64,000 nt of DNA from Chiloscyllium plagiosum (GCF_004010195.1 NC_057718.1:48667859-48731858); one strand, 5' to 3'; positions 7,375-41,877 are shown, numbered from the stretch's first letter. The notes: generated from the letters alone by a model not told the origin. Translations and numbers: made by a program.

Positions 7375-7578
7375 CCATGATATCGAGGTGCTGATGTTGG
7401 ACTTCCGTGGACAAAGTCAGAAGTCACATGACATCAGATTATAGTCAAACAGGTTTATTTGAAATCACAAGGTTTTGGAGCTCTCCACCATTTCACCTGA
7501 TGATGGCGAGCACTCCGAAAACCTGTGATTTCAAATAAACCTGGTGGATTATAACTCTGTGTGTGTGACTTCTGACTT
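7375..7578. mobile_element. Short inverted-repeat PLE-terminus insertion
   Basis: Arms aagtcagaagtcaca...gaaatcaca / tgtgatttc...tgtgacttctgactt; 12-bp direct repeat tatacattgcat at 7363-7374 and 7579-7590. Confidence 0.75.
7493..7528 (+). ncRNA. Degenerate minimal hammerhead ribozyme motif
   Basis: tcac-CTGATGA-tggcgagcactcc-GAAA-acct-gtga; stem I tcac/gtga pairs; the cleavage-site region looks mutated. Confidence 0.4.
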
Positions 7579-7629
7579 TATACATTGCATGATTTATTCC
7601 TCTCTATATAAATACAGAATAATGAATCA

Positions 7630-7755
7630 ATGTTCTGAAGAAGGATGATTGGATGTTGACTCTGCTTCTCTCCCCATTGATGCCTCTTGACCTGCTGAAT
7701 TTCTCCTACAATTCCTGTTTTTGTTTCAGGTTTCCAGCATTCACAGCTCTTTGTT
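7630..7755 (+). mobile_element. Decayed PLE terminal sequence
   Basis: ttctgaagaagg...gacctgctgaatttctc...gtttccagcattcacagctctttg resembles the other PLE ends; similar relics at ~9118-9250 and ~9660-9735. Confidence 0.45.
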
Positions 7756-8442
7756 TAAATTCTTGGTTTCATGTCTCTACATTGAATCACACTAAGCTTC
7801 AACCAACTTCATTTCCCACATATGACACAGATGGCTTGAGTATTTGGGACAGCAAAACTGTAAGCATTTGGGAGGCATTTGTTTTCTTATTGCAGTATCT
7901 ATGAGGTTCAGCAAACGGTTATATTAAAGGAACGATCAGTTGACTTATATGCTAGAAAAACAGATGAAAGATTTGATTTTAACATTCCCATGTCTGACAG
8001 GAATTGGATGTGGAAGTGGATTGAAAATGGAGTAGCATAATTCCCTCCAGCAGACCATAGGATACAATAGTCTGCACCATCTTTGCAGGCATGTTCGAAG
8101 GAACTTATGGTTCAATGCATGCTCTCAATGCAGGCAGGTGAAAACCTGAATGATTATTCCATATTCAGGACCCGATAATGTCATTTGAGTCCCAATGTGA
8201 ATTCAACAGCAAAGATTTCGTGATAAGTAAACTGGCACTAAGGAGATGCTGTCCCAGAAAGATGGAAAAAATTAGTTATTTTAATTATTTAAATATTCCT
8301 TGTCAGGGTCATTTGGAGGTGGAGCACATAAAGATCTTTAGGACCCCCATCCATACTCTTGGCTTTGATCTTGCCTAACTGTAGTCACCTCTGCTACTCA
8401 TCTGCCCCCACCTTAATTACTGCTTTCAATAGGTGACAGCTG

Positions 8443-8783
8443 GAGAATCACAGAATTGCTGCAGTGCTGATAGAGGCTATTTGGACCATCAAATCTTCAC
8501 TGACCCTCTGAACAGTATCCCACCCAAACCCATTTCCCAAACTTATTCCTTTAGCCCTGCATTTCCCATGGCTAATCCAGTGAACCTGCACATTGCTGGA
8601 CACTGTGAACAATTTAGCATGGCCAATCCACCTGGACTGTGGGAGGAAACCGGAGCACCCAGCAGAAACCCACACAAACACGGGGAGAACATGCAAACTC
8701 CACACAGTCATCCAATGCTAGAATTAGACGCGTGTCCCTGGCACTGTGAGGCAGTAGTGCTGACCACAGTGACACCATGCCAC
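8443..8783 (-). mobile_element. HE1/V-SINE-type tRNA-derived SINE
   Basis: Minus strand shows a tRNA-like head and the core tgtgtggagtttgcatgttctccccgtg...ggtttcctcccacagtcc shared with the other copies. Confidence 0.85.
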
Positions 8784-9904
8784 TCATAATGTTCCCACAG
8801 GACCTGGTGGTGGCTTCCGCATTCAAAAAGAGTTTCCCTACTAGCCAGCCATGTGACTGAATTGAAGCCATGCTAACTGGTGTTTCAGAAACAAAGATAC
8901 ATAGTTTTTATTTGTGAAAGGAGATTATTAACTGCCTCAGTCTAATAGATCTCACACCAATCTCATATTCTCACAACTGAACATTATCAATATGTACTCA
9001 AAGCAAGTTAATAGCATATGTTCGTTTTAACCTCAGCAATGACATTCATCAACATTAAACATGTGAATAACAAGGAGTTAGCAGACCAGGTACTAGCTCC
9101 TACAGGATTAGGAGACAGATTCTGAAGAAGATTCTGGAAAAGAGTCACTGGATCTTTCTCCTTACAGATAACGTGAGACTTTCTGAGCCTTTCCAGTTAT
9201 TTCTGTTTTTATTTCTGATTTCCAGAATCTGCAGTTCTTTTGGACTTTTTGTTTAGGATAGAGATTCCTTTGGAGATGGGAATGACAACTGGAATTTAAA
9301 AAGGTTGGATATGCACTAAAATATCATCAGGCTAATTTGTTGTTCAAGTGGCTGCATCATGCCTTAGTCAAAGTGCGAAGGTGTTTTCTGGAATAGTTCA
9401 GGAAGGCTTTGAATGCACATGATTACCACTAGTATTGATAATGAAGGGAATATCACAAATTATCTGCCCTGTTTCAATCATATTGGTTCTCTCTCCCTGC
9501 AAAAGGACCTATGGCACTCAATTAAAATGGAAATACTTCAAGGGAGTTGATTGGCAGTTCTATTGGAATTTAGGAGATGTATTTTGAATTGGGAAAAAAA
9601 AACTTGCAATTATTGAGTGCCTTTCTTGACCACAGGACATACCAAACAGCTTTACAGTCAATGACTTACTTTTGCTGTCAGATCTGCTGCATTTCACTAG
9701 CAATTTCTGTTTTTGTCCACAATTCTTTGTTTTGTTTATGTACATTGGAAGTGTACTTAGTATTTTAAAGTGAGAAACATGGTGGTCAATTTGAGATCAG
9801 CAAGCTCCTGTAAATAGTATGGTAATGACCAGATTATCTGTTTTTTGAACATCCATTGAAGGCTACATATTGGTCAGGACAACAGGAAGAGCTCCCCTGC
9901 TTTT

Positions 9905-11888
9905 ACAGGAAACAGTGCAGTGAGATCTGAAACAGGCTGTCATGCTTGAACAGGTTGATGTTAAGAAGGAGAATGTGCTGAAAATTCTGAAAAACATAAG
10001 GATAGATAAGGCCACTGGGCCAGATGGGATATACCCAAGATTGCTACAGGAAGCAAGGGAAGAGATTGCTGCGCCTTTGGCAATGATCTTTGTGTCCTCA
10101 CTGTCCACTGGAGTAGTGTCAGATGATCAGAGGGTAGCACATGTTATTCCCTTGTGCAAGAAAGGGAGTAGGGGTAATCCTGGGAATTATAGACCAGTCA
10201 GTCTTATGTCTGTGGTGGGCAAATTATTAGGATTCTGAGAGACAGGATTGATGATTATTTGGTAACAGGATAGCTCAATTAGAGATAGTCATCATGGCTT
10301 TGTGAGGGGATGGTCATGCCTCGCAAGCCTTATTGAATTTTTTGAGGATGTGACAAAACAAATTGATGAAGGTAGAGCAGTGAATGTGGTGTGCATGGAT
10401 TTTAGCAAGGTGTTTGATAAGGTTCCCCATAGTAGGCTCATTCAGAAAGTAAAGAGGCATGGGATACAGGGAAACTTGGCTGTCTGGATACAGAATTGGC
10501 TGGCCCATAGAAGACAGAGGGTGGTAGTAGGTGGAAATATTCAGCCTGGAGCTCGGTGACTAATGGTGTTCCGCAGGGATCGGTTCTGGGATCTGTGCTC
10601 TTTGTGATTTTTATAAATGACTTGCATGAGGAAGGGGAAGGGTGGGTTATTAAGTTTGTCAATGACACACAGCTTGGTGAAGTTGTGGATAGTGTGGAGG
10701 GCTGTTGTAGGTCGCAACGGGACATTGACAGGATGCAGAACTAGGCTGATAAGTGGCAGATGAAGTTCAACATGGAAAAATGTGAAGTGATTCATTTTGG
10801 AAAGTCGAATTTGAGTGCAGAATACAGGACTAAAGGCAGGATTCTTGGCAGTATGGAGGAACAGGGGGATTTTGGGGTCCATGTCCAAAGATTAGATCAG
10901 ATTGGATTCCCTACACTATGGAAACAGACCCTTTGATCCAACAAGTCCACAAACACCCTCTGAAGAGCAACCCACCCACACTCATTCCCTCCCCATTTAC
11001 CCCTAACAAATGCACCTAACACTATGACAATTTAGCATGGCCAATTCAACTGACCTGCACATCTTTTGATTGTGGGAGGAAACTGGAGCACCCGGAAGAA
11101 ACCCACACAGACACGGGGAGAATGTGCAAACTCCACACAGACAGTTGCTCGAGGCAGAAATCAAACCCGGAGCTCTGGCATTGTGAGGCAGCAGTGTTAA
11201 CCACTGAGCCACCATGCTACCCCTCAAAGATGCCACCCAAGTTGATAGGATTATTAAGGAGGTATATGGTGTGTTGGCTTTCATTAACAGGGGATTGAGT
11301 TTAAGAGCTGCAAGGTTATGCTGCAGAGCTATAGAGTCCTGATTAGACCACACTTGGAAGAATGTGTTCAGTTCTGGTTGCCTCATTATATGAAGGATGT
11401 GGAAGCTTTAGTGAGGGTGCAGAGGAGATTTACCAGTTGCTGCCTGGTCTGGAGGGTATGTCTTGGTGAATAAAGGTGGAGGGGGCTAGGGCTTTTCTCA
11501 TTGGAATGAAGAAGGGTGAGAGGCAACTTGATAGAGGTGTACAAGATGGTGAGAGGCATAGATAGAGTGAATAGTCAGAGACTTTTTTCCAGTTCAGAAA
11601 TGGTTGTCACATGGGAGCATAATTTTAGGATAATTGGAGGAAGATTTAGGGGAGATGTCATAGGTAGCTACTTTACATAGAGAGTGGTGAGTGTGTGGAA
11701 TGCACATCAGTGGTGGTAGTACAGTCAAATACATTAGGGACATTTAACCAAATCTTGGATAGGCACATGGATGATAGTAAACTGAAGGGTATGTAGGTTA
11801 GTCTGATCTTAGAATTGGATAAAAGATCAGCACAACATTAAGGGCCGAAGGGCCTATACGGTGCTGTACTGTTCCATGTTTCATGTTT
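9905..11888 (+). mobile_element. CR1 LINE, 5'-truncated
   Basis: GPDGIYPRLLQE, PGNYRPVSLMSVVGK, DFSKVFDKVPH, GVPQGSVLG, KFVNDT; CR1 3' UTR at ~11800-11888. Confidence 0.92.
10890..11220 (-). mobile_element. HE1/V-SINE-type SINE inserted in CR1
   Basis: Minus strand head gtggctcagtggttaacactgctgcctcac...ccgggtttgatttc (A/B-box-like), conserved core and CR1-like tail; interrupts the CR1 RT between gtccaaag and ccctcaaag. Confidence 0.9.
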
Positions 11889-12105
11889 AATTTCTTACTT
11901 TTATGTTCACTTAAGAAGACAGATGGAACCCTTGTTTAATATTTTATCCAAAAGATAACATCTTCACCAGTGCAGGACTCCCTGAATACTGCACAGGAGG
12001 GTCAGTCCTGATTTTATTTGTTTCAGTCCTGAGTTGAACCACCTTCTGTCTCTGAGGTTACTATTAATACTACGTTTTGAAAATGCTGTTCTACCCACAG
12101 TGATA

Positions 12106-14489: not shown

Positions 14490-17400
14490 GATCTTGTTTA
14501 ATAAGCTGTTGCATTGTTTTGGAACATTGGGGAAAAAAGATCAAAACAACGGCACTTTTAAAAGGAGGAAGACAGACAAAAGGCAGCAACCACATGGTCA
14601 GTGACGGAGAGAGAGAAAGAAACCTACAATACTAACTAACACAGCAGTGAATCTATACAGTGACTGGTTCTGCTGTTTGAGTTCATGTATCTCTGGACAT
14701 TGGAGTGCATCTAGGAAAAATTAACAAACAGTGAAATTCACAGCTAACCTTGGAGGAACCTGTGTGGGAGAGCTCACAGCATCGGAACAGATAAATGCAT
14801 AGTTTTTAAGTGTACCCTTGCTGTAAGTCTACAGTAGTGAGTAGATTGTTCAGAAACACTCCCCAGGACCTTACCATTAAATGTATAAATCCTGCTCTGA
14901 GTTGCTTTTCCAAAATGCAGCACCTCGCATTTATCTAAATTAAAGTCCATCTGCTACTCCTCAGCCCATTGGCCCATCTGATCAAGATCCCATTGTATTC
15001 TGAGGTAACCTTCTTTTCTGTCCACTACACTTCCAATTTTGGTGTCATCTCCAAAATGACTAACTATCCCTCCTATGTTCACATCCAAATCATTTATATA
15101 AATGATGAAAAGCAATGGACCCAGCACTGATCCTTGAAGCATACCACTCCAGTCTGAAAAGCAACCCTCCACTACCACCCTCTGTCTTCTACCTTTGAGT
15201 CAGTGCTGTATCCAAATGGCGAGTTCTCCCTGTACTCCATGAGATCTAACCTTGCTAACCAGTCTTCCATGTGGAACCTTGTCGAACACCTCACTGAAGT
15301 CCATAAAGATCATGTCTACTGCTCTGCCTCATCAATCCTTTCTGCTACTTCTTCAAAAAACTCAAACAAGTTTGTGAGACATGAGTTTCCAAGCACAACG
15401 CCATGCTGAATACCCTAATCAGTCCTTGCCTTTCCAAATACTGTCCCTCAGGACTCCCTCCAACAACTTTCCCACCACCGACGTCAGGCTCACTGGTCTA
15501 TAGTTCCCTGGCTTTTCCTCACCACCTTCCTTAAATAGTGGCACCGCATCAGCCAATCTCCAGTCTTCTGGCACCTCATCTGTGACTATCAATTATACAA
15601 ATATCTCAGCAAGGGGTCCAGCAATCACATTCCTAGCTTCCCGCCAAGTTCCAGGGTACACCTGATCAGGTCCTGGGGATTTATCCACCTTTCTGCATTT
15701 CAAGACATCCAGCACTTCCTCCTATGTAATATGGAGATTTTTCAAGATGTCACCATCTATTTCCCCACATTTTATATCTTCCATGTCCTTCTCCACAGTA
15801 AGCATTGATGCAAAATACTCATTTAGTATCTCTCCCATCTCCTGTGGCTCCACACAAAGGCCGCCTTGCTGATCTTTGAGGGGCCCTATTCTCTTCCTAG
15901 TTACCCTTTTATCCTTAATATTTTTATAAAATCCCTTTGGATTCTCCTTAACTCTATTTGCCAAAGCTATCTCATGTCCCCTTTATGACTTTCTGATTTC
16001 CCTCTTAAGTATACTCCTACTGCCTTCACTCGATTTCTCCTGTATATACCAGACAAAGGCTCCCTTCATTTTCTTAACTAAAACCTCAATTTCTCTAGTC
16101 ATCCAGCTTTCCCTACATCTATCAGCCTTTCCTTTCACCCTGACTGGAATATATTGTCTCTGGACTCTCGTTACCTTATTTGTGAAGGCTTCCCATTTTC
16201 CAGCAGTACCTTTATCTTTGAACATCTGCCCCCAATCAGCTTTTGAAAGTTCTTGCCAAACACTGTCAAAGTTAGCTTTCCTCCGATTTAGAACTTCCAC
16301 TTTTAGATCTAATCTATCCTTTTCCATCACTATTTAAAAACAAATAGAATTGTGGTTGCTGGCCCCAATGTGCTCCTCCACTGACACCTCAGTCACCTGC
16401 CCTGCCTTATTTCCCAAGAGTAGGTCAAGTTTTGCACCTTCTCTAGTAGGTACAACCACACATTGAATCAGAAGCATTTCTTGTACACACTTAACAAATT
16501 CCTCTCCATCTTCACGCTTAACACTATGACAGTCCTAGTCTATGTTTGGAAAGTAAAAATCCCCTATCATAACCACACTATTATTCTTAAACAGAAATTT
16601 CCTTAAAAAATTGTTTCTCAATTTCCTGCTGACTATTAGGGGGTCTGTAATACAATCTCAAAATAAGGTGATCATCTCTTTTTTTATTTCTCAGTTCCAC
16701 CCAAATAACTTCCCTGGATGTATTCCCAGGAATATCCTCCCTAAGTATAGCAGCAATGCTATCCCTATTAAAAACACCACTCCCCCTCCTCTCTTGCCCC
16801 CCCCCGCCTTTGTACCCTTCCTTTAGCATTTGCATCCTGGAACATTGAGCTGGCAGTCCTGTCCATCCCTGAGCCACATTTCTGTAAGATTAGATTCCCC
16901 TACAGTATGGAAACAGGCCCTTTGGCCCAACAAGTCCCCATGATCAATCCTCCATGATCACCACCATTACCACCACCATCGCTACCTTACTACTTTAAAT
17001 CCTCCCAAGCAGCACTATCAAGTTTTCCTGCCAGTATATTAGTCCCCTTTCAATTCAAGTGCAATCCGTCCTTCTTGTACAGGTCACTTTCACCCCAGAA
17101 GAGATTCCAATGATCCAAAAATGTGAATCATTCTCCCCTTCACCAGTTCCTCAGCCACACATTCATCTGCTCTATCCTCCACTTCCTACCCTCACTAGCT
17201 CGTAGCACTGGGAGTAATCCAGATATTACAACCCTCATGGACCTTCTTTTTAAATTCCTGTCTAACTCTCTGTATTCTCCCTTCAGAATCCTATCGTTTT
17301 CCCTTTCTATGTCATTGCTTCCAATGTGTACTATGACGTCCTGCTGGGCCGTCTTCCCCTTGAGAACATTCTGCACCCTCTCTGAGACATCCTTGATCCT

Positions 17401-18490
17401 GTCACTAGGGAGGCAACATACCATTCTGATTTTTCGCTGCTGGCCACAGTCAAGTCTTCCTGTGCCTCAGACTAGAGAGTCCCCTACCACAATCGATCCC
17501 TTGGAAGCCCCCTCATTATATCATAGCCAGTCTCAATACCAGAAACTTGGCTGTTTGTCCTACATTCCCTTGAGAGTTCATCACCTCCACATTTTCCAAA
17601 ACAGCGTACTTGTTTGAAATGGGGATAGCCACAGAAGACTTCTGCACTACCTGTCTACCCCTCCTACTTTTCCTGGAGTTAACCCATCTACTGGACTGTA
17701 TCTGCGGCTTTTCTTATTTCCTATATCTGCCATTCATCACACCCCCTAGCTCTTGTAAATTCCTTTTTGCCTCTAACTGCCACTCCAACTGGTCCATAGG
17801 ATTCGCAATCACAGACACTTCCTGCAGTGATAATCATCAGAAACATGGAAACTCTCCCTAAATTCCTACATCTGACAAGAAGAGCACTCTACTAAAAGCC
17901 ATCTTTGCTGCTTCACAATCTACAGACTCAGAAAATAGCAACATCTTTTTGCTCCAAAGCACAGTGCTCCAGGTTAACTTAGTACTTTTGATTTGTATTT
18001 TTAAACTTTAATCAAATATCAGATCTGAGGATTTATAAGGATGTTGCCAGGGTTGGAGTATTTGAGCTATCGGGAGAAGCTGAATAGGTTGGGGCTGTTT
18101 TCCCTGGAGCGTCGGAGTCTGGGGGGTGACATTGCAGAGGTTTATAAAATCATGAGGGGTATGGATAGGATAAATAGACAAGGTATTTTCCTTGGGGTGA
18201 GGGAGTCCAAAACTAGAGGGCATAGGTATAGGGTGAGAGGGGAAAGATGTAAAAGGGACCTAAAGGGCAACTTTTTCACACAGAGGGTGGTGTGTGTATG
18301 GAATGAGCTGCCAAAGGAAGTGGTAGAGGCTGGTACAATTACAATATCTGAAAGACATCTGGGTGTGTATATGAATATGAAGGGTTTAGAGGAAGATGAG
18401 CCAAGTGCTGGCAAAAGGGACGAGATTAGGTTAGGACATCTGGTTGGCATGGATGAGTTGGACTGAAGGGTCTATTTTCATGCTGTATAC
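14490..18490 (+). mobile_element. Full-length CR1 with internal ~3.15-kb inversion (5'UTR +, body -, 3' end +)
   Basis: 14490-14848 is the reverse complement of 50040-50400 (5'UTR of the intact copy). 14849-18015 carries RT, endonuclease and SGNH ORF1 (MVCCLP..KDVSERVQ..HIGSND) on the minus strand. 18028-18490 is the CR1 3' end on the plus strand. Confidence 0.88.
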
Positions 18491-22990: not shown

Positions 22991-23689
22991 TGCTCAATAA
23001 GATGAAACTCTCCAAGTGTTGCAAACATTGTGATGAAAGGATAGCCTAAAAGCATCAAGGACACACTTGTTGCTCTCAGATCATTTTGGGCAGACAGTCC
23101 AAGTTGGCATATAGTACAAAACAACAGTCATCTCAGTTTTAGTCAAAAATCTGCCTTTTGAAACTGGTCACAGCTGAAGATTAAGGGATGCACGGTTTTC
23201 TTTTTTAGATCTAGGTCCATTTTAATAGTGACATCAGATGTCATCAGATCAATGAAACCACCAATTTTATTGTTGTCAAACTTTACCAGGTTCCACATTA
23301 AAGCGAGTCAGTCAATATTTTTAGACAAATTATTGTTTTTTTTTAACAAAAATTAACTACTCCAAGCAAAGATGCAAAGAATATTGGCAAACATTTAGAT
23401 AATTTAAATAAATAGATCTAGCATTACACACAACAAATGAAGGCACAAACATACTCGAGTCAAAGGAGAAAGAACGTAAAGGAAAACCCGAGGTGCTAAA
23501 TTTAAAGTATTTTTGCCAATTGTTAAACTCATGTAAAAAAGTTCGGTCATGGAATGTCCCACATGGTATTATATGGCTATACGTGCACAGGAAATTGGGA
23601 ATAAATAAAGCCATTCAGATTGCAAAATTTGCTCCGCCATGGTGACAGAATTAACTGGCATCCTGCCCAACCATGATGGCACTTACCAG

Positions 23690-28286: not shown

Positions 28287-28500
28287 TTAGAGTGGTGCTG
28301 GAAAAGCACAGCAGGTCAGGCAGCATCCGAGGAGCAGGAAAATCAATGTTTCGGGCAAAAGCCCTTCATCAGTAAGGGCTTTTGCCCGAAATGTCGATTT
28401 TCCTGCTCCTCAGATGCCTCCTGACCTGCTGTGCTTTTCCAGCACCACTCTAACCTAGACTCTGGTTTCCAGCATCTGCAGTCCTCATGTTTGCCTAGTC
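28287..28500. mobile_element. Short inverted-repeat PLE-terminus insertion
   Basis: 80-bp arms 28287-28366 / 28374-28453 with a 7-nt loop; 11-bp TSD aaggggccaga at 28276-28286 and 28501-28511. Confidence 0.85.
28345..28372 (-). ncRNA. Minimal hammerhead ribozyme motif
   Basis: Minus strand CTGATGA-A-GGGC-TTTT-GCCC-GAAA-CATT; the opposite arm reads GAAATGTC. Confidence 0.5.
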
Positions 28501-28874
28501 AAGGGGCCAGAAGTACCTGAAGTGTAGAGAGAGGCTGAATAGGCTGGATCTATTTTCCCGAGAGTGTCAGAGACATTACAGAAGTTTATAAAATCATGGG
28601 GTCATGGAGAATGTGATTAGTCAAAGTCTTTTCCCCAATAGGGGAGTCCAAAACTAGAGGGCATAGTTTAAGGTGAGAAGGAAAATATTTAAAAGGGATC
28701 CAAGGGAACTCTTTTCATGCCCAGGGTTGTGTGTGTGTATAGTATCCTCTTGGAGCTTTCTTTGATCCTTGCTTTATTTTAACTGTACATATTTCATTGC
28801 TTATTTTATCAGTCAGTGTTATGTCTACTTGCTCTGTCCTCCTGTTAAATACTGAAGTAAAATAATTATTTTAT

Positions 28875-29639: not shown

Positions 29640-31340
29640 TTGTGAGCTCCACAAATTTGTCTAAATTGGCTCTGACTTGCTGGTTATAGCTACAGAATGA
29701 GACTCTTTTCTACAATAGCAACATCTTTTTTTGCTTGATTCACTGTTGCTCTTGCAAGTGTATCCACTTTAACTTGCAGCTTCCAGCTCGGCGAACAGAA
29801 CCACAGCAACGAGCACCCAAGCTACAAATCTTCTCACAAACTTTAACTTGCAGCTTGCTTGGAACATGGAATACACCATTGTCATATCTCAAGAGACTAA
29901 GCTTGAAACTTTGAATGCATAGAGGCATTTTTAAGATTTCTTTTGAGCTCAATAATGTTACCAAAGGCCTGTTATCTGTCTCAATTTGAAAGTACAATTT
30001 GATTATATAGTCTGTGAACCTTTCAAATCACCATCTTAATGTTAACATTTCCTTCTCTACGGGTGCCTGCCTCTGTTCAGTCTCTATCAAAGCTTTCAGA
30101 GTGAAATAGACCAGTTTTTGTGTTTTGTCAATTTCTACTTGAATAAAGACTGTTCCTAACCCTGAACAATGCATCCACAGCTCTATGGTGTGTTAACCTG
30201 GATTGTGTAGAGTATGGAGCTCTCAGAGGAGGTGGTGGAAGCTGATACAATTACAACATTTAAAAGGCATCCGGATGGGTATATGAATAGGAAGGGTTTA
30301 GAGGGATATGGGCCAAATGATGGCAAATGGGACTAGATTAATTTAGAATACCTCATCAGCATCAACTGGTTGGACGGAAGGTTCTGTTTTGGTGCTGTAC
30401 ATATCTGGCTGTATGGCTGTTCAACAGTCATCTGGCACCACACAGTTTTCCAGCAATCAGTTAAAATGTATAGTTATGCTTCAGCTATCTCAGAATGAAG
30501 ATATGAGAGAATTTCAGAAAAACCATTCAAGCTGTTCAAAGATTTAGGCAAATTTAAGCTGGAGTATTACATAACTCTGCAGGAAAATGCTAAACCTTTC
30601 TGCCTGTCCACTCCCAGGAAGCCTCCTCATCCTTTCACAGGAGAAATTAAATCTCAGTTAGACAGCATGATAGAAAATGGAGTCAAATCACTGATGTCAG
30701 AACCAACACTGTGGTGCTCAGGGCTAGTAAGTGATCCCAAGACAAATGAGGAACTAAGACTTCTATGCAGATTTCACTCACTGTCAATAAACATGAGGTC
30801 ACAAACTGTGATTAATTATATTAATCAGTTTTGGGGCTCTAATTTCGGCCTGCAGAGTGAATTGGATTTCTTGTTCCAATGTAAAATCCTCCTTGGATTA
30901 AAGAAAGTCTGATACCTTCTCATTCCTCACACGTGATCACTGTATAGTCTTTAATTAATTCATACCTCCACAGCTCCATAGCCACAATATGTTGCTGGAC
31001 AATATAAATCCATTTAAAATGAATGGTAGCTGGTTAAAGTAACACCATCAGAATGGTGTAATAAATATACTTTCAAATGCAGTGTCACTGATCAAATCTT
31101 GCCCATTTTGTCACTAAATTTTCTTTGGGATTAAAGTACGCATCAAATGTTTGAATCAATATATCATTCTCCATTGTATTATTTTCCCATGCTTTTTCTT
31201 ATCAAACCATCACCAGCTGTTGGATCCATGGCATATAAAAATATGCTGGCTGGATAATGATGTTTCCTTCATGTGTAAGCCTGAAATGCTTCTATAGTAT
31301 TGAACTACTGAATCCAGAACTTCCAGTTTGCTGTCATTGT
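29640..31340 (-). mobile_element. Decayed Ty3/Gypsy element with an inverted internal RT segment
   Basis: Minus: gag-like NWKFWIQ..FLYAMD..FDAYFNPKENLV..CGYG..ELIKD (30830-31340) and RNase H ALIETEQRQAPVEKE..FQIETDNRPLV..IQSFKLSLLRYD..HVPSK..DTLARA (29700-30210). Plus: RT N-terminus KPFCLSTPRKPP..SEPTLWCSGLV..PK (30500-30790). Confidence 0.8.
30215..30420 (+). mobile_element. CR1 3' end
   Basis: gaggaggtggtggaagctgatacaattacaacatttaaaaggcat...ggtgctgtac, matching other CR1 3' ends. Confidence 0.85.
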
Positions 31341-31570: not shown

Positions 31571-32116
31571 ATTGTTGAAGTTGTGTTGCCATCCTAATGT
31601 ACCATCACATCTGACTGACCTGGGGCAGTACTTAGATTTTTCCTTTGTACCATTGATGTGTTCAAATCTTGTGCTTTTCATCTCCAGAGTTACCTGGATT
31701 GGTGACTAGACTACAAATCTTTTAAGGTTCTTTATCCTGCCCTTCAGAACCTTCAGGCTCTGCAGCCCTGTATTCAAAATCTTTTAAGGTCTTTTTCCTG
31801 CCTTCAAAGTCTTCCATTTTCCAGGTCTTTTCTCATGGTCTTCCTAGGTCTTAGCCAACCTTCATAGTCTTCCTTTTTCAGTTGGACTCTCTTTTAGCTT
31901 CGGATTCTGACTCTGGAGACGTTTCACTCACTAGCTAACCCTGTGTTTTATCCTGAGCTTTAAGCCAATATATCTTCCTGAACGTTGAAGTTAAAGCCTG
32001 GAGTAACTCTGGTCTTGGGTATCTGCACATGTACCATTGCTGAAGCGTCTTGCTCCTTATTTCTAAGGAAAGCTTTTCAACTTCTTAAATATTGTGACAA
32101 TCACTTATTTACAACT

Positions 32117-32470
32117 GGGCGGCACAGTGATTCAGTGGTTAGCAATGTTGCCTCACAGCACCAGGGACCTGGGTTTGATTCCAGTCTTGGGTGACAGTGT
32201 GTAGTTTGCACGTTCTCTCTGCGTCTGCATGGATCCCCTCTGGGTGCTCCAGTTTCCTTCCGTAGTCCAAAGATAGACAGGTTAGGTGGATTGACTATGA
32301 TAAATTGCCCATGGTGCCAAGGAATGTGTAGGTTCAGTGGATTAGCAATGGGAAATGCAGGATTATGTGGATAGGATAGGGGGGTGGGATCTGGGTGGAA
32401 TGTTCTTCAGAGGGGAGGGCAAACGTGATGGACTGAATAGCCTGCTTCCACATGTAGGGTTCTATGGTTC
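32117..32470 (+). mobile_element. HE1/V-SINE-type SINE
   Basis: gggcggcacagtgattcagtggttagc (A box) ... gggtttgattcc (B box), conserved core, CR1-like tail. Confidence 0.85.
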
Positions 32471-33148
32471 TCATACGTAGTAGTGTAAGTGTAATTTCTA
32501 AGAATTCTTTCTTCAAATGCTTTTTCTAGACTAATTTATTTTCTCTGACTGAAGATAGAGTTTTCTAACTAGTTATATAATCATAATTTACATGAATCTC
32601 ACTGTACCACACTAACCCCAATTTTATCTTGTCTTTCCATAGACTAGAGAATTTCTATATGAGGGTTCATTCATGTACCTTCCTGCCTGTATTGTCTCTG
32701 GTATTTGAATCTCTCCAATGCGTATTAGTGGACAGACCTGGAATCAAACTATACTCTGGCCAAAGTGTAGTCTAGCTTGATTTCCCCTACTGTTCTACTA
32801 TTGTAGCTCAATAATCTACTATGTTTATTGATTGCATTGATGCTCAGCATTGACCCAACATGGTGTGTCTTAATTTTACATGGGCTCCAATTCTCTTTGA
32901 ATTTTACCCTTTATTATTTCAACAAGTACTCAAGCCACTTCAATCATCTTCCTAAATGCCTCCAATTGTCACCTCTCTATAATCTGCTCATTTATGTATT
33001 TTATTCCTCTCGTTCTGAATAGTCTGATATGGCTCCTCAGGTTCTATTATCCCACTGTAATTTGTCATGAGATCTTGCCTACAATGTTCTTTTCTGTAAC
33101 CAGTTCTATTCCTGAATATTTGTTAAAAATATACATTTGTTATTTATA

Positions 33149-33926
33149 AGATAAAAGATAGGGAGGAGGGACTTGGGGGAGGGGTGTTGGGAATGCGATA
33201 GCTGGAAGGGGTCAAGAGGGCTGTGCTGGATCCGAACTTTGGGACTGAGATAAGGTGGGGGGGGGGGGGGAGGGGAAATGAGGAAGCTGGAGAAATCTGC
33301 ATTCATCCCTTGTGGTTGGAGGGTTCCTAGGTGAAAGATGAGGCGCTCTTCCTCCAGGCATCATGTTGCCAACGTCCAGGGCAGTTGGGTTGGTTGGTGC
33401 GGGTGTCCCAGCCCTGTGGCTGAACACTTTAACTCCCCCTCCCACTCCGCCAAGGACATGCAGGTCCTTGGCCTCCTCCATCGCCAGACCATGGCAACAC
33501 GACGCCTGGAGGAAGAGTGCCTCATCTTCTGCCTAGGAAACCTCCAACCACAAGGGATGAATGTAGATTTCTCCAGCTTCCTCATTTCCCCTCCTCCCAC
33601 CTTATTCCAGTCCCAACCCTCGGACTCAGCACCGCCTTCCTAACCTGCAATCTTCTTCCCGACCTCTCCGCCCCCACCCCCACTCCGGCCTATCACCCTC
33701 ACCTTAACCTCCTTCCACTTATCACATTCCCAACGCCCCTCCCCCAAGTCCCTCCTCCCTACCTTTTATCTTAGCCTGCTTGGCACACCCTCCTCATTCC
33801 TGAAGAAGGGTTTATGCCCGAAATGTCGATTCTCCTGCTCCTTGGATGCTCCCTGACCTGCTGCGCTTTTCCAGCAATACATTTTTCAGCTCTGATCTCC
33901 AGCATCTGCAGTCCTCACTTTCTCCT
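33149..33926 (+). mobile_element. PLE 3' fragment with inverted 5' partial copy
   Basis: 33149-33410 is inverted relative to 33411-33926 (VAEHFNSPSH..RRLEEECLIFCLGNLQPQGMN); 14-bp TSD atttgttatttata at 33135-33148 and 33927-33940. Confidence 0.9.
33800..33827 (+). ncRNA. Minimal hammerhead ribozyme motif
   Basis: CTGAAGA-A-GGGT-TTAT-GCCC-GAAA-TGTC downstream of the PLE ORF. Confidence 0.5.
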
Positions 33927-34647
33927 ATTTGTTATTTATAGCCAATATTACCTCTGAGGTGATAATTGATGCAATGAAATTTTACATTCTTTTGGTAAAT
34001 CCAGGAATATTGTTCAGTGGTACATGACACTCAGTGGAAAAAGTCAGGGCTCAGATTGTGAACAGTAAATGGAAGCTTCTTCTGTGGTGAAAATGAGAAA
34101 ACGTTACTTGTAACAAGAGTCACACTTCTGTGGAATGACTTGACTGTACTTCCCCTAATAAAATACCTCAGGCTTTAAGACAACCAGAAGAATTGTATCT
34201 GGAAAGATTTAACTTTCAATCTCTTGCATGGAGTTTCCAAAAAAAGTAAACCTCAGCAGATTTTCAGAACCACTATTAGACAACCCTAAAGAATTGGGAA
34301 GTATTGTTGAAACAACAGAACTTACTAAATGTGTTATAATAATCTGACTCACATTGCACATTTCAAACATAGTCTTTTAAATAATTTAAGGATTAAAGTT
34401 ATGCTGTTATTTTTTCATTTACAACAAGACAGAAGTGATAGGATGGAATAATTTTAATCCCATCCATCAGAGGCAATTGATCTACTAATTCAAATTATCC
34501 AGGTTATTTACCTGCTCTGGAGCTTCTGGGAGATAACCATTTTAACCTGCCGTACTGAACGGATGGGAAGGACATCTGTCCAAAGCTGATTTGAGGGTAA
34601 GGAGGTGGCTGGGAGCATCTGGAATCAAACTGCATTGTTAGCCGGAT

Positions 34648-35820
34648 AGAGTCATAGAGTCATAGAGATGTACAGCATGGAAACAGACCCTTCGGTCCAA
34701 CCCGTCCATGCCGACCAGAAATCCCAACCCAATCTAGTCCCACCTGCCAGCACCCGGCCCATATCCCTCCAAACCCTTCAAATTCATACACCCATCCAAA
34801 TGCCTCTTAAATGTTGCAATTGTTCCAGCCTCCACCACTACCTCTGGCAGCTCATTCCATACACATATCACTCTCTGTATGAAAATGTTGCCCCTTAGGT
34901 CTCTTTTATATCTTTCCCCTCTCACCCTAAACCTATGCCCTCTAGTTCTGGACTCCCCGACCCCAGGGAAAAGACTTTGCCTATTTATCCTATCCATGCA
35001 CCTCATAAGTTTGTAAACCTCTATAAGGTCACTCCTCAGCCTTTGACGCTCCAGGGAAAACAGTCCCAGACTGTTCAGCCTCTCCCTATAGCTTGAATCC
35101 TCCAACCCTGGCAACATCTTTGCAAATCTTTTCTGAACCCTTTCAAGTTTCACAACATCTTTCCGATAGGAAGGAGATCAGAATTGCACGCAATGTTCCA
35201 ACAATGGCCTAACCAATGCCCTGTACAGCTGCAACATGACCTCCCAACTCCTGTACTCAGTATTCTGACCAATAAAGGAAAGCATACCAAACGCCTTCTT
35301 CACTATCCTATCTACCTGCAACTCCATTTTCAAGGAGCTATGAACCTGCACTCAAAGGTCTCTTTGTTCAGCAACACCCCCTAGGACCTTATCATTAAGT
35401 GTATAAGTCCTGCTAAGATTTGCTTTCCCAAAATGCGGCACCTTACATTTATCTGAATTAAACTCCATCTGCCACTTCTCAGCCCATTGGCCCCTCTGGT
35501 CCAGATCCTGTTGTAATCTCTNNNNNNNNNNNNNNNNNNNNNNNNNNNNNNNNNNNNNNNNNNNNNNNNNNNNNNNNNNNNNNNNNNNNTGTCGAACGCC
35601 TTACTGAAGTCCATATAGATCACATCTACTGCTCTGCCCTCATCAATCTTCTTTGTTACTTCTTCAAAAAACTCAATCAAGTTTGTGAGGCATGATTTCC
35701 CATGCACAAAGCCATGTTGACTATCCTGAATCAGTCCTTGCCTTTCCAAATACATGTACATCCTGTCCCTCATTATTCCCTCCAACAACTTGCCCACCAC
35801 CGAGGTCAGGCTCACTGGCT
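34648..35820 (-). mobile_element. Young CR1, 5'-truncated, spanning an assembly gap
   Basis: SLTSVVGKLLEGI..QHGFVHGKSCLTNLIEFFE..YMDFSKAFD; C-terminus KLERVQKRFAKM; (gactctat)n tail at 34648-34667. Confidence 0.93.
35522..35589. other. Assembly gap (68 N)
   Basis: Run of N. Confidence 1.
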
Positions 35821-36079
35821 TGAGGGCTCAGTGTCTAGCCCTGAAGACCTAACACTACTGCAACTAAATTTCTAATCAGCTCATATGATAGGGCAAGGTC
35901 TTTGACTACATGGTTGAATGACAGTTCCTACCCATCACTCCAATGGCTTCTACATTGTTCAATACATCACAATCCCCATCATTCATACAGCATCACTCCC
36001 TGGTACTCAGGACTCATGCCTAACACCTAGGCTTTCATCAATTACTGACCAATGTTGTCAGCCTCAAGCCTAACACTTA

Positions 36080-36210
36080 CTTAAGGGCTACGGGGAGAAT
36101 GCGGGTAAGTGGAGTTGAAATGCTGATCAGCCATGATTGAATGGCAGAGTGGACTCGATGGGCCGAATGGCCTTACTTCCGCTCCTATGTCTTATGGTCT
36201 TATGGTCTTA
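36080..36210 (+). mobile_element. CR1-type 3' tail
   Basis: gatcagccatgattgaatggc...gggccgaatggcc...(tcttatgg)n tail. Confidence 0.75.
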
Positions 36211-36498
36211 TATACAGATCATTGTCCTATAATGCACGTTTCGTCAATGCGGTTTGGCTTTAATGTGAATGGAGAATTGGGGAATGATATTTTAAAAACA
36301 CAAACTCCCATTAGCGATTATGTGATTCCATCCCCGGTTACCTTAGGTCCACTCTAGGTGTTCACTTCAGGTCAAGCCAAAGAGGTTGGATGACGTGGTA
36401 AATTTTTTCTAAGGTGTTCGAAGATGTTTTAAGAAATTATTGCAGAAGAAAAGATTTGGATTTGAAGATTTTCCTCATTCTGGCCAATGCACCAAGCC

Positions 36499-36720
36499 GG
36501 AGGAGAAAGTGAGGACTGCAGATGCTGGAGATCAGAGCTGAAAATGTGTTGCTGGAAAAGCGCAGCAGGTCAGGCAGCATCCAAGGAACAGGAGAATCGA
36601 CGTTTCGGGCATAAGCCCTTCTTCCTCATTCCTGAAGAAGGGCTTATGCCCGAAACGTCGATTCTCCTGTTCCTTGGATGCTGCCTGACCTGTTGCGCTT
36701 TTCCAGCAACACATTTTCAG
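36499..36720. mobile_element. Very young inverted-repeat PLE-terminus insertion inside Tigger
   Basis: 88-bp arms 36537-36624 / 36634-36721 with one mismatch and a 9-nt loop; perfect 14-bp TSD caatgcaccaagcc (36485-36498, 36721-36734). Confidence 0.9.
36632..36659 (+). ncRNA. Minimal hammerhead ribozyme motif (best preserved copy)
   Basis: CTGAAGA-A-GGGC-TTAT-GCCC-GAAA-CGTC: intact core, palindromic ACGT in place of helix III, GUC cleavage triplet. Confidence 0.6.
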
Positions 36721-37852
36721 CAATGCACCAAGCCATCTACCATTAGTGAGCTTTCTGAAAACATCAAAGTGCTGTTTCTACCTCCAAACGCAAACTGTCT
36801 CATTCAACCCATGGACCAGGGTACAATAGCAGCTTTTAAAGCTTATTATTTAAGGCACACATTTAAGAAGCTTATTGAAGCTAATAAGGGAGATAATCAG
36901 GTCAGTGATTTTCAGTTTTGGAAGAGCTTTAACATTAAGACTGCTATTGACATCATTGTGGAGGCCTGGGGTGGTATCACTGAGGACTGCTTGCACACAG
37001 TTTGGCTGAAACTTCTCCCAGATTTTCTTCATGATTTTAAAAGTGTTGAACCATCAGAGGAGCTTCCAACAATCAAAGAACATTGTGTTGCTCTTGCGAA
37101 GCAAGTTGGATTTGAAAAAGTGGAGACTGATCTATAACACCTTGTTGCTGCAGGGAAAATTGAAGCTTGAGATGAAGATGTTGAAGTCCAGGATGCTGCA
37201 CCATGAGAACTTCCCACTTCTCTTGAGACTTTTATTCTGAGGGAAGTTGAGAAGCAGTTGCAACTCTTACAAGACAATAGCTGCAATACAGAGTGCAGCA
37301 GGATAGCTGTTCTTATCTGGCACTCTCTATGAACAGCTTCTTCATAAAAGAAGAAAAATGGCAGAGCAGTAAAAACTCAATGCCTTTTTTAAGCCAACCC
37401 CCAAAAAGCAGTCTGAGGACAATGAACCACAGCCATCCACTTCTAGACTAAATATTTTCTTTCATCGTAACCTGCACCCAGAATTCACCTGAAAGTAATG
37501 ATGATGCTGATGATGACCATTAGCCCCATCTTAATACAGTAATGTAACTCAGCAAACTCAGAAACCCCTTAAAGTGTTAAATTTATTGATTTTAACATTT
37601 ACATAGACTGTGCCATTGTTTGTTTTAGACTAACTACTATTTTTGGTTTGAAGTTCACTGATATTGTTGGTGGTTTGCCTCAACCCTGTTTTTCCCATAG
37701 GCTCTGTTATTTTTATTACACAATTTTCTATAACACGAGGATGCACGAAAACGCAACCATTGTGTTATTGCAGAACAGACTGTACTTCTGGTTGTTCAGC
37801 TATGGAAGGCACTCAAACAAAATGCAGCACCATCACTGACATTCTTCTCTCT

Positions 37853-38112
37853 ATTAGATTAGATTACATTAGATTACATTACAGTGTGGAAACAGGCCCT
37901 TCGGCCCAACAAGTCCACACCGACCCGCTGAAGCGAAACCCACCCTGCACATCTTTGGACTGTGGGAGGAAACCGGAGCACCCAGAGGAAACCCACGCAG
38001 ACACAGGGAGAACGTGCAAACTCCACACAGTCAGTCGCCTGAGGCGGGAATTGAACCCGGGTCTCAGGCGCTGTGAGGCAGCAGTGCTAACCACAGTGCC
38101 ACCGTGCCGCCC
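37853..38112 (-). mobile_element. Young, internally shortened HE1/V-SINE-type SINE
   Basis: Minus head gggcggcacggtggcactgtggttagc..ggttcaattcc (A/B boxes), CpGs retained, (attagattac)n tail. Confidence 0.92.
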
Positions 38113-40036
38113 ACTATGTTGCATGGTATTACACAATTGTAGGGAGCAGAAACAGAACCAGTAGGCAACAAGGACATGTATGTCTCCTGAACAGATTGTT
38201 CTCCACATCATTGCGCTGCCTATGACAGAGCACACGGCACTCAACTTCACTGTATCTCTCGTCCAGGATCCTCAATATGTCAGTGTTTATTTTTACACAC
38301 CAGCAAACCTCTTGTTTGGCTCTATTTTCCACACTGAAGAAAGTTAATACTACTTTTGATACACCATGAATAATGGAATCAAATCCTCAGACAAAAGAAA
38401 TCTTGACAGACTAATTTAGTAAATTTATATTTATTATGAATCATATGATGCGATTCTGATTTAGCTGTTGTGTCAATGGTAACTATTCCATGAGTCAGAA
38501 AGAGATTAGAAATCTTGTAGAAGAAAATAAATAGTACCTACTCCTAAATTTCTGTGTACTGTGGAGTGTTGTTTTTACTTCAGGATATTTCATAAAGAAA
38601 AATCTCCATATATTAGAGTTGTAGTATTTGCTGAACTCCTTGTATAAAGACTCAGAGTGTTAAAATCTTCAGACGTTTTCTGACAAATTCAAAAAAGGAA
38701 ATACATTGTAAAAAGTGTATTTTATATCCAGATTATTGTCTTCTCGTTGCTGTCAGTGCAAAACAAAAAAGGGGAAATAAAACAGGAAGGACCACATTTC
38801 TTAGGACAAAAATGAGAAGGGATTTCATTGTAATAATATTATCAGGCAGCTGTTTTAAAGAAAACAGCCACCACTTGGTTACAGAGAAGTGCTGACACAA
38901 TGGAATTTTCATTTCTGATGTTTCACATACATATAATTCTTGCAATACAAGAACATTGCCGAGAATATTTTTCCATTAATTAATGACATATAAGACATAG
39001 GTTATTGTTGGCATTAATTTTTTTGTTTAAAACTAATTTCACAAGAATGCAAGGTCAATAGATGATGTTTTCATGTTGACATATTGCTATGTTATGGATC
39101 TTTGGAATTCTTGAAAGTTTAGGACAATTCATTTTTATAATCAAAGCTTCTCATAATTAACCTTTCTTTTCAGAAAAATCAGTGCGGATAATAGCTACAA
39201 AACCTTTTCAGTATAATTAAAATGCAATTCAATTTTGTGTATTCCAGGCAAATCCTGGGGGTGATTTTAAGTTTCAATACTCATGTTAAGCGGTGATATC
39301 AGTCTGGCTATTATACAGATTTTCATTTTATCACAAACATTGGAAGGGCTAGTTCCATGGCACGTACAATGGACTTTCCAATATGAATCATTGTACACCA
39401 GCTAAACTATCCCCACTTCACACAAAATAAACAGATCCAACTCCTCAAAGTCACAGAATACATAGAGTACACTTGAAGCGTTTGCAACAATATTAATTGC
39501 AATAGATTTAGTTCACTTATTTGGTATGCAATGGCTAAATTTGCCTCAGGAATGACAATCAATAACGTGTTAGATAAATTATCTTTACTTGTGTCTCAGT
39601 GTCAAATCTCTTGTTTATAATTTTAGCTTTTTGAACCAATGCCCCGTGAGGTCATTCTTGCTGCATTCAGTAACAATGAGTTCCAGAACATGTTGTCAAA
39701 TTATAATACTTTGCTTATGATGTGGAATTCATAGTCTTAAGAGTTTACAATATATCATTAGTTTCTTTTGATTAATATAGTATATTGTTTCAGTTTGGGA
39801 TTTTTAAGCACTATGGGAGAAAAATGGATGTGGCCCAAAAATAGATACATGTGATTTGTGATTAACCCAGGTCTGTTTTTCCAACACAGGCAGTGTGCAA
39901 ACTTAGTGCTATTAATTTAAATGATAGAAGCATGCAGCCCAGTGCTAAATTCTCTATTGAGTAAATGTGTGCCTTAGCAGGGGGCCTAAGTTGGAGCAAG
40001 TTTAGCTCCACTTATAACAAGCTTGCATTACTTATA

Positions 40037-40243
40037 GGGAGAAACTGAGAACAGCAGATGCTGGAGATGAGAGTCAAAAAGTGTGGTGCTGGAAAAGCAG
40101 TATCCGAGGAGCAGGAGAGGCAACATTTCAAGCATAAGCTTACTCCTGATGAAGAGCTTAAGCTTGAAACGTCAACTCTCCTGCTTCTCAAATGCTGCCT
40201 GACTGGCTGTGCTTTTCCAGCGCCTCACTTTTTGACTCTTACT
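40037..40243. mobile_element. Short inverted-repeat PLE-terminus insertion
   Basis: Arms agagtcaaaaagtg...aagcataagct / agcttaagctt...cactttttgactct; 9-bp direct repeat ttacttata (40028-40036, 40244-40252). Confidence 0.8.
40146..40173 (+). ncRNA. Minimal hammerhead ribozyme motif
   Basis: CTGATGA-A-GAGC-TTAA-GCTT-GAAA-CGTC. Confidence 0.55.
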
Positions 40244-40569
40244 TTACTTATATCCAGTCTGTCCCTCAGAAATGGGAGGTGTACTCTGATGTCAGTAGGT
40301 GCTGAAAGTATCGAAGAAAGTGTAGATATGGCATAACAAGGTACAGAACATTCTCACATGGAGGACTGAAGGGCTGGAGATGCAGGAGGTGGACAAGAAT
40401 TGAAAGGTTCTCTCTCATCAAGGGGAAGAGGGAGGAACTCCAGACATAATCATGAATGCAGTAGGAGCAAATACCTGTTCTGGTCTCAGGACCTGGATAC
40501 AGTGCCTAAAATCACTCCATGATTGTCAAGTTCTATGAATGCATTCTAAAATTTAATATACTAACACGA

Positions 40570-41877
40570 AAATCTGGAATTAGGAATCTACTGATGACCA
40601 TGAAATAATTGTTGATTGTAAGAAAACCCATCTGATTCACTAATGTCCTCCAGGGAAGGAAATTTTCCATCTTCACCTGATCTGGCCTACATGTGACTCC
40701 AGACCCATAGTAATGTGGTTGACTCTCGATTGCTCTCTGAATTGGCCGAGCAAGCCATTCAGTCGAATGAATTGCTACAAAGTTTCAAAGAAATAAAACT
40801 GGATGGATCACCTGGGATCGACTGAGGCACCGGAGAAGACAATGGCAAAAAAACTCAGTTGACCCTGCAAAAACCTCCTCACTAACATCTGGGGGCTAGT
40901 GCCAAAACTGGGAGAGTTGTCTCTCAGACTAGTCAGAGACAAAAAAGCCTGCAGATGCTGGAATCCAAAATAGACAGACAGGAGGCTGTAAGAACACAGC
41001 AGGCCAGGCAGCATCAGGAGGTGGAGAGGTTTCAGGTGTAACCCTTCTTCAGGACTGGGGGTCGGTGTGGCGGGAGCTGCAGATAAAGGGGGTGGCGGGG
41101 CCAGGGTGAAGACAGGTAGAGGGTACAACCTGGTTGGTCAGTGGGAGGAATGAATCCAATTGGTGGCAGGGAGCAGTGGAAGGGAGGGGGAGGGGTTAGG
41201 AAGGGAGTCGGGGGATGGGGAGCGAGGTTATTTGAAATTGGAGAACTCAATGTTGAGTCCTCCAGGCTGTAGGCTGCACAGTGGAAGATGAGGTGTTGTT
41301 CCTCTGATTTGTGCTGTGGTTTGTTGTGGCAATGGAGGAGGCCAAGGACGGTCATGGGAGAAAGGGATTGGTTGGGGGGATTGAAATGGGTGGCGACTGA
41401 AATGAGTGGTGACTGGGAGGACTTCCCAGTCACCACCCATTGCAATTTCCCCAACCACTCCTTTTTCGACATGACCATCCTTGGCCTTCCATTGCCAAAA
41501 CAAACCATAGTGTAAACCGGAGGAACAACATCACACCTTCTGCCTAGGCAGCCTACAATCAAGGAAAATCACCATAGGTCCTCAGATAGCACCTTCCAAA
41601 CCCACGATCCCTTCCATCTAGAAGGACAAAGATGGCAGATAATTGGGAACATCACCGCCTTCAAGGTCCTCTGCATCCTGACTTGGAAATATTTTGCTGT
41701 TCCTTCACTGCCATAGAGTCAAAATCCTAGAATTCCCTCCCTAACAGCATTGTGGGTCAACCCCACAGCAGGTGGACTGCAGTGGGTCAAGAAGGCAGCT
41801 CATCAACACTTTCTCAAGGGGATAGACAATAAATACTGGCCAGCCAGCACCACCCACATCCCATAAATAAATAAAAG
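40570..41877 (+). mobile_element. Family-B LINE, internally deleted (5' region plus endonuclease start; 3' end), interrupted by a PLE
   Basis: SINE-like 5' region followed by LTNIWGLVPKLGELSLRLV (40878-40934; APE domain-I N..GL motif); family-B tail at 41580-41877. Confidence 0.65.
40935..41560 (-). mobile_element. PLE 3' fragment with inverted partial copy
   Basis: Minus VATHFNPPNQS..EEQHLIF..PGGLNIEFSNFK; 41425-41560 is an inverted duplicate; degenerate hammerhead CTGAAGA-AGGGTTACACCT-GAAA at 41030-41052 (minus). Confidence 0.85.

Follow-up and report, generated by a model that had tools for sequence, protein, structure and literature searches.

Minimal hammerhead ribozymes (min-HHRs) have been reported in the pseudo-long terminal repeats (pLTRs) of metazoan Penelope-like elements (PLEs) by Cervera and de la Pena (2014, PMC4209133), with monomers that were inactive and dimers that cleaved weakly. 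The PLE hammerhead of D. virilis, whose helix I has 2 bp, is described there as cleaving weakly once helix III was extended. Here we describe six hammerhead motifs in a stretch of 64,000 nucleotides from the shark Chiloscyllium plagiosum (GCF_004010195.1 NC_057718.1:48667859-48731858), hereafter the window, with positions counted from its first letter and motifs named by position. We conclude that these are very probably minimal hammerheads heading the short end module of PLEs, likely present as dead-end truncated copies of uncut element RNA, mostly damaged or predicted to be trapped in hairpins and likely inactive.

The window copies resemble the published min-HHRs in their CUGANGA core, the extra A before stem II, the G10.1-C11.1 pair, the palindromic positions 15.2-16.2 and the lack of helix III, and also in forming several families per genome, mostly as solo copies from truncated PLEs, with close opposite-strand pairs. 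They differ in their shark host and in a family stem I of 2 contiguous bp rather than the 3 of the published descriptor, and their opposite-strand partners are fused at the core (0-30 nt), whereas those in PMC4209133 lie 100-700 bp apart. The arrangement also recalls the units of inverted pLTR plus tail described by Arkhipova et al. (2013, PMC3846280) and Craig et al. (2021, PMC8557442), which have a head-to-head 5'-truncated inverted copy, a 30-40-bp tail at one end, target-site duplications (TSDs) of about 8-14 bp and a palindrome at the junction. In contrast to those units, the window holds stubs of ~200 bp with a junction about -9 to +16 nt from core position C3. PLE hammerheads and inverted ends are already described; the new detail here is a complete core on the tail-less arm in four of four palindromes. 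A literature search for shark PLE hammerheads or for such a tail/core asymmetry found none, most subscription papers and some supplements, which may list shark examples, being outside its reach.

Three further systems bear on the comparison. In the anole Poseidon PLE (Frangieh et al. 2024, PMC11167929), the ribozyme cleaved only with the element protein, ribozyme mutants still inserted in vitro, and the protein cut and extended both strands, starting at two sites one tail apart. The window copies share with it a tail between two copy ends, a putatively uncut RNA template and no RNA-seq ends at the cut; unlike that assayed element of the Poseidon clade, they carry a Neptune/Nematis-type linker. 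Animal non-LTR (long terminal repeat) retrozymes (Cervera and de la Pena 2020, PMC7229834; Li et al. 2026, 10.64898/2026.07.22.740005) have their origin in the terminal repeats of PLEs and, like the window copies, are non-coding with a type-I hammerhead; they are present in one sampled chondrichthyan. Their head-to-tail tandem arrays differ from the window copies, which are solo or head-to-head, with tandem 131-nt joints rare and seen in contigs only. Of nine Xenopus retrozyme dimers, one cleaved and eight did not (10.64898/2026.07.22.740005). Finally, Naiad PLEs thrive without a hammerhead motif (PMC8557442).

Hammerhead motifs in the window

A pattern scan of the window located all six CTGANGA-stem-GAAA motifs at the positions and on the strands that a first-pass annotation had given them, namely 7497 (+), 28372 (-), 33800 (+), 36632 (+), 40146 (+) and 41052 (-) (Table 1). 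The bare motif, defined as core and GAAA 9-30 nt apart, is not clearly over chance (10 against 5.7 expected, a count reached in 15 of 200 block-wise dinucleotide shuffles, the null used here). A strict pattern with a stem II of at least 3 bp followed by GAAA-NN-UH occurs five times (28372, 33800, 36632, 40146 and 41052; 7497 fails) against 0.10 expected, and none of the 200 shuffles reaches five; with self-complementary 15.2-16.2 added, three copies remain against 0.02 expected by shuffling. These three, in which the palindrome could serve as a dimeric helix III, have C-G (36632 and 40146) or U.G (33800) at 15.2-16.2. The GAA-ACGT-C stretch that the annotation had read in the best copies was found, as GAAACGTC, in two of the six, 36632 and 40146.

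We then compared the copies with the published min-HHR descriptor (RNAmotif; Fig. S7 in the supplement of PMC4209133), which specifies a CUGANGA core, an optional extra base, a stem II of 3-7 bp, a loop of 3-10, GAAANNUH and a stem I of at least 3 contiguous pairs. The core with its stem II and loop is present in five of the six copies, 7497 being the exception. The GAAANNUH box is likewise matched in five, with C at 16.1 in 7497 and with the match in 41052 coming after a 7-nt gap over the cleavage region, as measured against seven close arms in one alignment. All five copies reaching the stem I step fall short there (2, 2, 0, 0 and 0 bp), and 7497, which has a 4-bp stem I, fails other parts, leaving none of the six that passes the whole descriptor. 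An Rfam scan of the window, run up to E 10, gave 13 matches, none of them to a hammerhead family. The copies fit the wider PLE-hammerhead group, which includes a variant with a 2-bp helix I, outside the strict descriptor.

Three miRNA-family Rfam matches (36575-36682, 40097-40198 and 28326-28413) were far under threshold and were set aside as reflecting the palindromes described below. The hammerhead pattern was found in no stretch of either a genome-contig or a viral-contig collection. With a 19-nt pattern from the flank, 114 loci were picked up in metagenomes and 75 in genomes. We treated these as chance matches: none of the best 15 profile scores among the 189 exceeded 18.9 bits, and they were centred around the seed.

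Damage was found in five of the six motifs. Stem II of 7497 has only 2 contiguous pairs; in 28372 the inversion junction comes right up to C3, so that stem I has no 5' strand; 40146 has lost the closing pair of stem I through a CpG change at 1.1; and 33800, with its cut site predicted between 33827 and 33828, carries two wobble changes. The sole copy retaining all family letters is 36632, which is intact in sequence. Two further decayed termini, 7635 and 9122, retain CTGAAGA without stem II or GAAA.

Table 1. Hammerhead motifs, PLE copies and palindromic stubs in the window (strand "." denotes a palindrome).
Feature	Position	Strand	State
Hammerhead motif 7497	7493..7528	+	damaged: 4-bp stem I, stem II mismatch, C for U at 16.1; tail-less arm
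Hammerhead motif 28372	28341..28372	-	core and stem II intact; CpG changes at 16.2 and 17; tail-less arm
Hammerhead motif 33800	33796..33831	+	family stem I (2 bp, U.U, 1 bp); private changes 33811, 33824; outside hairpin
Hammerhead motif 36632	36628..36663	+	GGGC/GCCC, GAAACGTC; stem I 2 contiguous bp; tail-less arm
Hammerhead motif 40146	40142..40177	+	A-U stem II variant; CpG changes 11.1, 1.1; tail-less arm
Hammerhead motif 41052	41022..41056	-	core and stem II present; no stem I; 7-nt gap over cleavage region
Palindromic stub of 7497 family	7375..7578	.	tail on left (minus) arm; 12-bp TSD 7363-7374 / 7579-7590; flanks unrelated
Palindromic stub of 28372	28287..28500	.	arms 76/83 identical; tail on right (plus) arm; 11-bp TSD 28276-28286 / 28501-28511
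Youngest palindromic stub (36632)	36499..36720	.	88-bp near-perfect hairpin, 9-nt loop; tail on left (minus) arm; 14-bp TSD 36485-36498 / 36721-36734
Older palindromic stub (40146)	40037..40243	.	arms 61/71 identical plus 14 gap positions; tail on left (minus) arm; 9-bp TSD 40028-40036 / 40244-40252
5'-truncated PLE of 33800	33149..33926	+	inverted piece 33149-33411; GIY-YIG C-terminal remnant from about 33413; tailed terminus; 14-bp TSD 33135-33148 / 33927-33940
Diverged PLE end (41052)	40935..41557	-	GIY-YIG C-terminal remnant; inverted piece 41268-41557
Longest PLE copy	5034..6686	-	reverse transcriptase, CX4CXXC linker, frameshifted GIY-YIG; last ~60 nt of terminus kept
Decayed PLE terminus	7635..7763	+	CTGAAGA kept; stem II/GAAA gone
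Decayed PLE terminus	9122..9250	+	CTGAAGA kept; rearranged beyond

Element ends and palindromic stubs

The parent elements can be recognized from the longest copy in the window. Its frame 5541-6686 (-) is a reverse transcriptase (RT) by domain search, the best of 976 matches being to Chiloscyllium punctatum at 84-88% identity and the next to Rhincodon at 74%, and the next frame holds a CX4CXXC linker plus a weak GIY-YIG match. The linker reads CHHRNCKIC in frame 5075-5701 and has the CX2-5CXXC form, between RT and endonuclease, that marks Neptune and Nematis PLEs (PMC8557442); by this predicted zinc finger the elements are putatively assigned to the Neptune type. An RT followed by a C-terminal GIY-YIG joined to the terminus, the order of an endonuclease-positive PLE, is present at 5075-6686, in a copy whose own hammerhead has been lost through an internal deletion at the terminus.

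The termini of 28372, 33800, 36632, 40146 and 41052 align with one another and with the end of this RT-bearing copy; the end of the 28372 stub, for example, is 96% identical over 52 nt to 5045-5096. Remnants of the endonuclease C-terminus were detected by tblastn upstream of 33800 (E 4e-22) and 41052 (E 0.001). The 7497 family has unrelated flanks and neither coding sequence nor flank similarity in the window, and was assigned to PLEs by its architecture. The first-pass annotation, which placed all six motifs within PLE termini, is borne out by sequence linkage for five of them, with 7497 a putative member by its architecture. It was right to see minimal type-I PLE hammerheads of several subfamilies with an ACGU palindrome in place of helix III, the core being kept between subfamilies.

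Four of the motifs (7497, 28372, 36632 and 40146) lie at the centres of head-to-head palindromes of ~200-220 bp, whose junctions fall at the ribozyme and which bear a tail of 30-45 nt on one arm only. Each of the four combines an inverted terminal copy, a one-sided tail and a TSD, as is characteristic of endonuclease-positive PLEs. TSDs of 9-14 bp were found at five of nine inserts tested; their scores were 9-14, whereas 150 random boundary pairs scored no higher than 8. None was found at 40935-41557. The youngest stub, at 36632, sits inside a DDE_1 transposase remnant (36466-37376, E 6e-17).

The two arms of the palindromes begin at different places. In 36632, 40146, 28372 and 7497, in that order, the tail-less arms start about 9, 4, 0 and 4-7 nt before C3, and the tailed arms at about +2, +9, +6 and +16 relative to C3. 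The core is complete on the tail-less arm in every case. With four palindromes, we regard this tail/core asymmetry as a lead only.

The insert at 33800 differs, being a tailed end whose inverted 5' piece derives from upstream of the ribozyme. That piece (33149-33411) duplicates about 33492-33773, and second priming there was therefore presumably internal rather than at the element end. The 41052 family has a second inverted junction, at 41268-41557, which falls within its endonuclease-coding sequence, and is represented again at 62580-62834 by a piece without the terminus. Head-to-tail tandem units of the retrozyme kind were not found among the nine termini in the window; the nearest same-strand pair is 2.8 kb apart, and no two intact copies stand in tandem.

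Conservation, folding and transcription

To place the 33800 copy within its family, RNA reads and contigs were aligned to 33600-33960 at 85% likeness. The RNA came from run X21, a poly(A) single-cell run of which about 2% was read and whose organism is possibly other than the species of the window; a second run, X22, yielded no aligned reads. At 33811 the T of the window is private: 836 of 916 RNA reads have C there, as does 94% and 92% of the depth in contigs; at 33824 the T is in the minority (C in 965 of 1121 RNA reads, and in 59% and 61% of contig depth). Among the 40 of 89 differences listed, the only other one inside the ribozyme is at 33804, the free position N7. None touches stem I, and the weak 2-bp stem I therefore appears to be the state of this family.

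These comparisons bear on the covarying stem II of the first-pass annotation, which holds only in part. Genuine two-sided differences from GGGC/GCCC do separate the subfamilies, at pair 2 of 40146 (A-U, the 3' U being common to both arms of the palindrome), pair 4 of 41052 (U-A) and pair 4 of 7497 (G-C). The GGGT/GCCC of 33800, in contrast, reads as decay by a private C-to-T change and not as covariation, because C dominates at 33811 in its relatives, and the terminal G-U pairs of 40146 and 41052 fall on a CpG. The catalytic centre contains three CpGs, and across seven arms 9 of 21 ribozyme CpGs are mutated; no arm has a change at A13, A14, A15.1 or U16.1.

In a comparison of six copies, every one retains the six fixed core letters, while the 3' flanks are 47-91% alike and 10 of 44 flank columns are invariant. 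Four of the six had been chosen for the motif; the 7635 and 9122 termini, which are also found by their flank, retain the core as well. Because the core is kept while the flanks diverge, including at these two termini, the motif was likely under selection in the parent elements, though not in the inserted copies.

Folding predictions separate the palindromic copies from the others. In a 350-nt context, adopting the hammerhead fold would cost 28.6, 21.9, 46.4 and 15.9 kcal/mol in the four palindromic copies, as against 4.8 and 3.9 kcal/mol in the two non-palindromic ones, by nearest-neighbour energies that ignore tertiary contacts of the core and help from proteins. Four of the six motifs are predicted to be buried in hairpins of 70-90 bp, and it is the intact 36632 that is worst trapped, inside an 88-bp hairpin (hairpin z = -29). 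Modelled double hammerheads were less stable than the separate monomers in 13 of 13 same-strand pairs.

In run X21, 2773 reads on both strands fell on the 33800 family, 2708 of them with a partial fit, which is what stubs scattered through other transcripts would give. At this low power, no position, the cut site included, had many molecules starting or ending there, and no strand depletion was seen over the cut, the orientation ratio being 2.08 and 2.10 before it, 2.01 over it and 1.93-2.06 after it. RNA depth rises 2.8-fold at 33795, with 131 reads having loose ends at 33796. The same position recurs in DNA joints, including a 131-nt head-to-tail joint from 33926 to 33796 (19 contigs of X9 and 1 of X1), although such tandem joints are rare against a family depth in the millions. 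Many copies of the family thus start at 33796, 4 nt before C3, which is the front edge of stem I and not the cut.

A-to-I editing of the hairpins was considered and set aside: A-to-G changes at 33856 and 33895 are biased in orientation, but C-to-T and A-to-C changes are also raised over DNA, and variants between loci explain the pattern equally. In addition, 189 RNA reads exit the stub at 33924 into one common flank (agreement 0.86) containing AATAAA, which suggests that one well-expressed transcript in the organism of the RNA run carries a stub near its poly(A) site.

A Pfam scan of 209 of the 222 non-repeat open reading frames (ORFs) of at least 52 aa (the other 13 lie inside the PLE body) turned up no host exon, although short exons, or introns reaching beyond the window, could escape it. 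Matches with E no higher than 0.01 were obtained for five of the 209, an RT fragment being the only one to pass its cutoff. The matches under cutoff include p31comet at 25531-25839 (-) (E 6.5e-4), TRAPP (22661-22993) and CHD1-like_C (4145-4336). A weak RT_RNaseH match with a nearby frame at 30031-30912 is likely a decayed LTR-retrotransposon piece. Remnants of long interspersed nuclear elements (LINEs) with RT and endonuclease matches lie at 2710-3674, 14846-18487, 34664-35827 and 46316-49599, and 68 N occur within 35381-35827. A dispersed repeat family of ~300 bp, which we take to be a short interspersed nuclear element (SINE), occupies 8460-8790, 10912-11222, 32116-32400, 37880-38112 and 43232-43630. 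A partial U6-like match at 46786-46842 (-) is under the Rfam threshold (E 0.08), and a diverged 24-bp minisatellite of ~4 kb at 57150-61200 is interrupted by an RT fragment (59716-60027).

Origin and fate of the copies

The most probable account of these observations is that most copies in the window are likely inactive, leftovers rather than active cutters of host RNA. We envisage that the element protein would nick both target strands 9-14 nt apart and that, by analogy with the anole element (PMC11167929), both target ends would prime reverse transcription on uncut element RNA, one per start site and with the sites one tail apart. Copying would stop near the likely 5' end of the RNA, just before the core, and the two copies would be joined head to head near the hammerhead. 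A type-I hammerhead has its core 5' of the cut, with the tail on the 3' side, and a copy with both therefore came from RNA uncut at that ribozyme. The frequent start at 33796 may be the template's 5' end. In active parent elements the motif may work weakly, as a dimer or with the element protein, which would account for a core shared by the subfamilies. The three CpGs of the catalytic centre decay fast once a copy has been inserted, and the mirror arm, transcribed first in read-through from outside, is predicted to pair with everything from the core onward.

Several observations weigh against this account. The 36632 copy is intact in sequence, and 33800 is nearly intact and free of the hairpin trap; modelled as a dimer, these two copies can pair in a full helix III of 4 bp. 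The fold energies leave out tertiary contacts and protein help, and the core-conservation comparison is partly circular, four of the six copies compared having been chosen for the motif. The RNA run is dominated by dispersed, partly decayed copies, in which low-level cutting would be missed. At least three contig joints at 33827-33829, the cut site, are present among those listed (15 of 51 and 12 of 79) and, though rare, could record cut templates. Lastly, the membership of the 7497 family is supported by architecture alone.

A more specific version of this account can be put forward only tentatively. The hammerhead would mark the 5' end of a template RNA of ~131 nt, and this RNA, still uncut, would be copied from the two target strands simultaneously. 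The tail-less copy would always reach the start of the RNA, 4 nt ahead of the core, whereas its tailed counterpart would be trimmed into the core at joining. The stubs would then be self-silencing records of a two-start mechanism, with the few templates that did get cleaved recorded by the rare joints at the cut site.

A different possibility arises because the family stem I has only 2 contiguous bp: the motif may no longer cut in this Neptune-type lineage, even in the parent element, and be kept as a structural signal such as a protein-binding site, a transcript start or a template end. The stem I ATTC/GATT shared by 33800 and 36632, with no variant among the 40 of 89 differences listed, and the start of copies at the front edge of stem I would both suit such a role, as would the unimpaired in vitro insertion of anole ribozyme mutants (PMC11167929) and the Naiad PLEs that do without the motif (PMC8557442). 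We nevertheless think it unlikely, since the letters needed for catalysis are conserved, common variation being confined to the free position N7, the 7497 family retains a 4-bp stem I, and the D. virilis hammerhead cleaved weakly on a 2-bp helix I when helix III was extended (PMC4209133).

It is more doubtful still that the ~131-nt module behaves like a retrozyme, a non-autonomous unit able to spread on its own out of tandem arrays or circles, in which case the stubs would be its offspring instead of truncated full PLEs. The 131-nt head-to-tail joints, the sharp 5' boundary at 33796 and the derivation of retrozymes from PLE terminal repeats (10.64898/2026.07.22.740005) would be expected of such a unit; against it, the nine window termini include no tandem unit, the tandem joints are rare relative to family depth, the terminus runs on into endonuclease-coding sequence at 33800 and 41052, and the four palindrome centres differ, as expected if each was made at insertion.

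Least credible, and in our view very improbable, is the view, going back to the first-pass annotation, that the dispersed copies are a dense population of live self-cleaving RNAs cutting host pre-mRNA from introns, as dimers in cis or trans: 36632 retains every core letter and the ACGU palindrome, it shares a strand with 33800 at 2.8 kb and a model helix III of 4/4, and poly(A) RNA contains the family in both orientations (2773 reads), but no copy passes the descriptor, four are buried in hairpins at a cost of 16-46 kcal/mol, the double-hammerhead energies lie above those of the monomers in all 13 pairs, there is no intact tandem, RNA ends do not pile up at the cut nor does strand balance dip there, no host exon was found, and in published assays min-HHR monomers were inactive and their dimers weak (PMC4209133), the anole ribozyme depended on the element protein (PMC11167929) and eight of nine Xenopus retrozyme dimers stayed uncleaved (10.64898/2026.07.22.740005).

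For the elements themselves, the account of truncated copies made from uncut RNA carries a caution: because CpG decay and hairpin trapping remove most copies, motif counts overstate the number of active ribozymes. If the reading of a ~131-nt template is true, hundreds of junctions would let the second-strand step of PLE insertion be read from the genome. Should the asymmetry of tail and core, together with the fixed start at -4, prove general across the genome, this would be informative about how PLE insertion is completed and about what the hammerhead is for.

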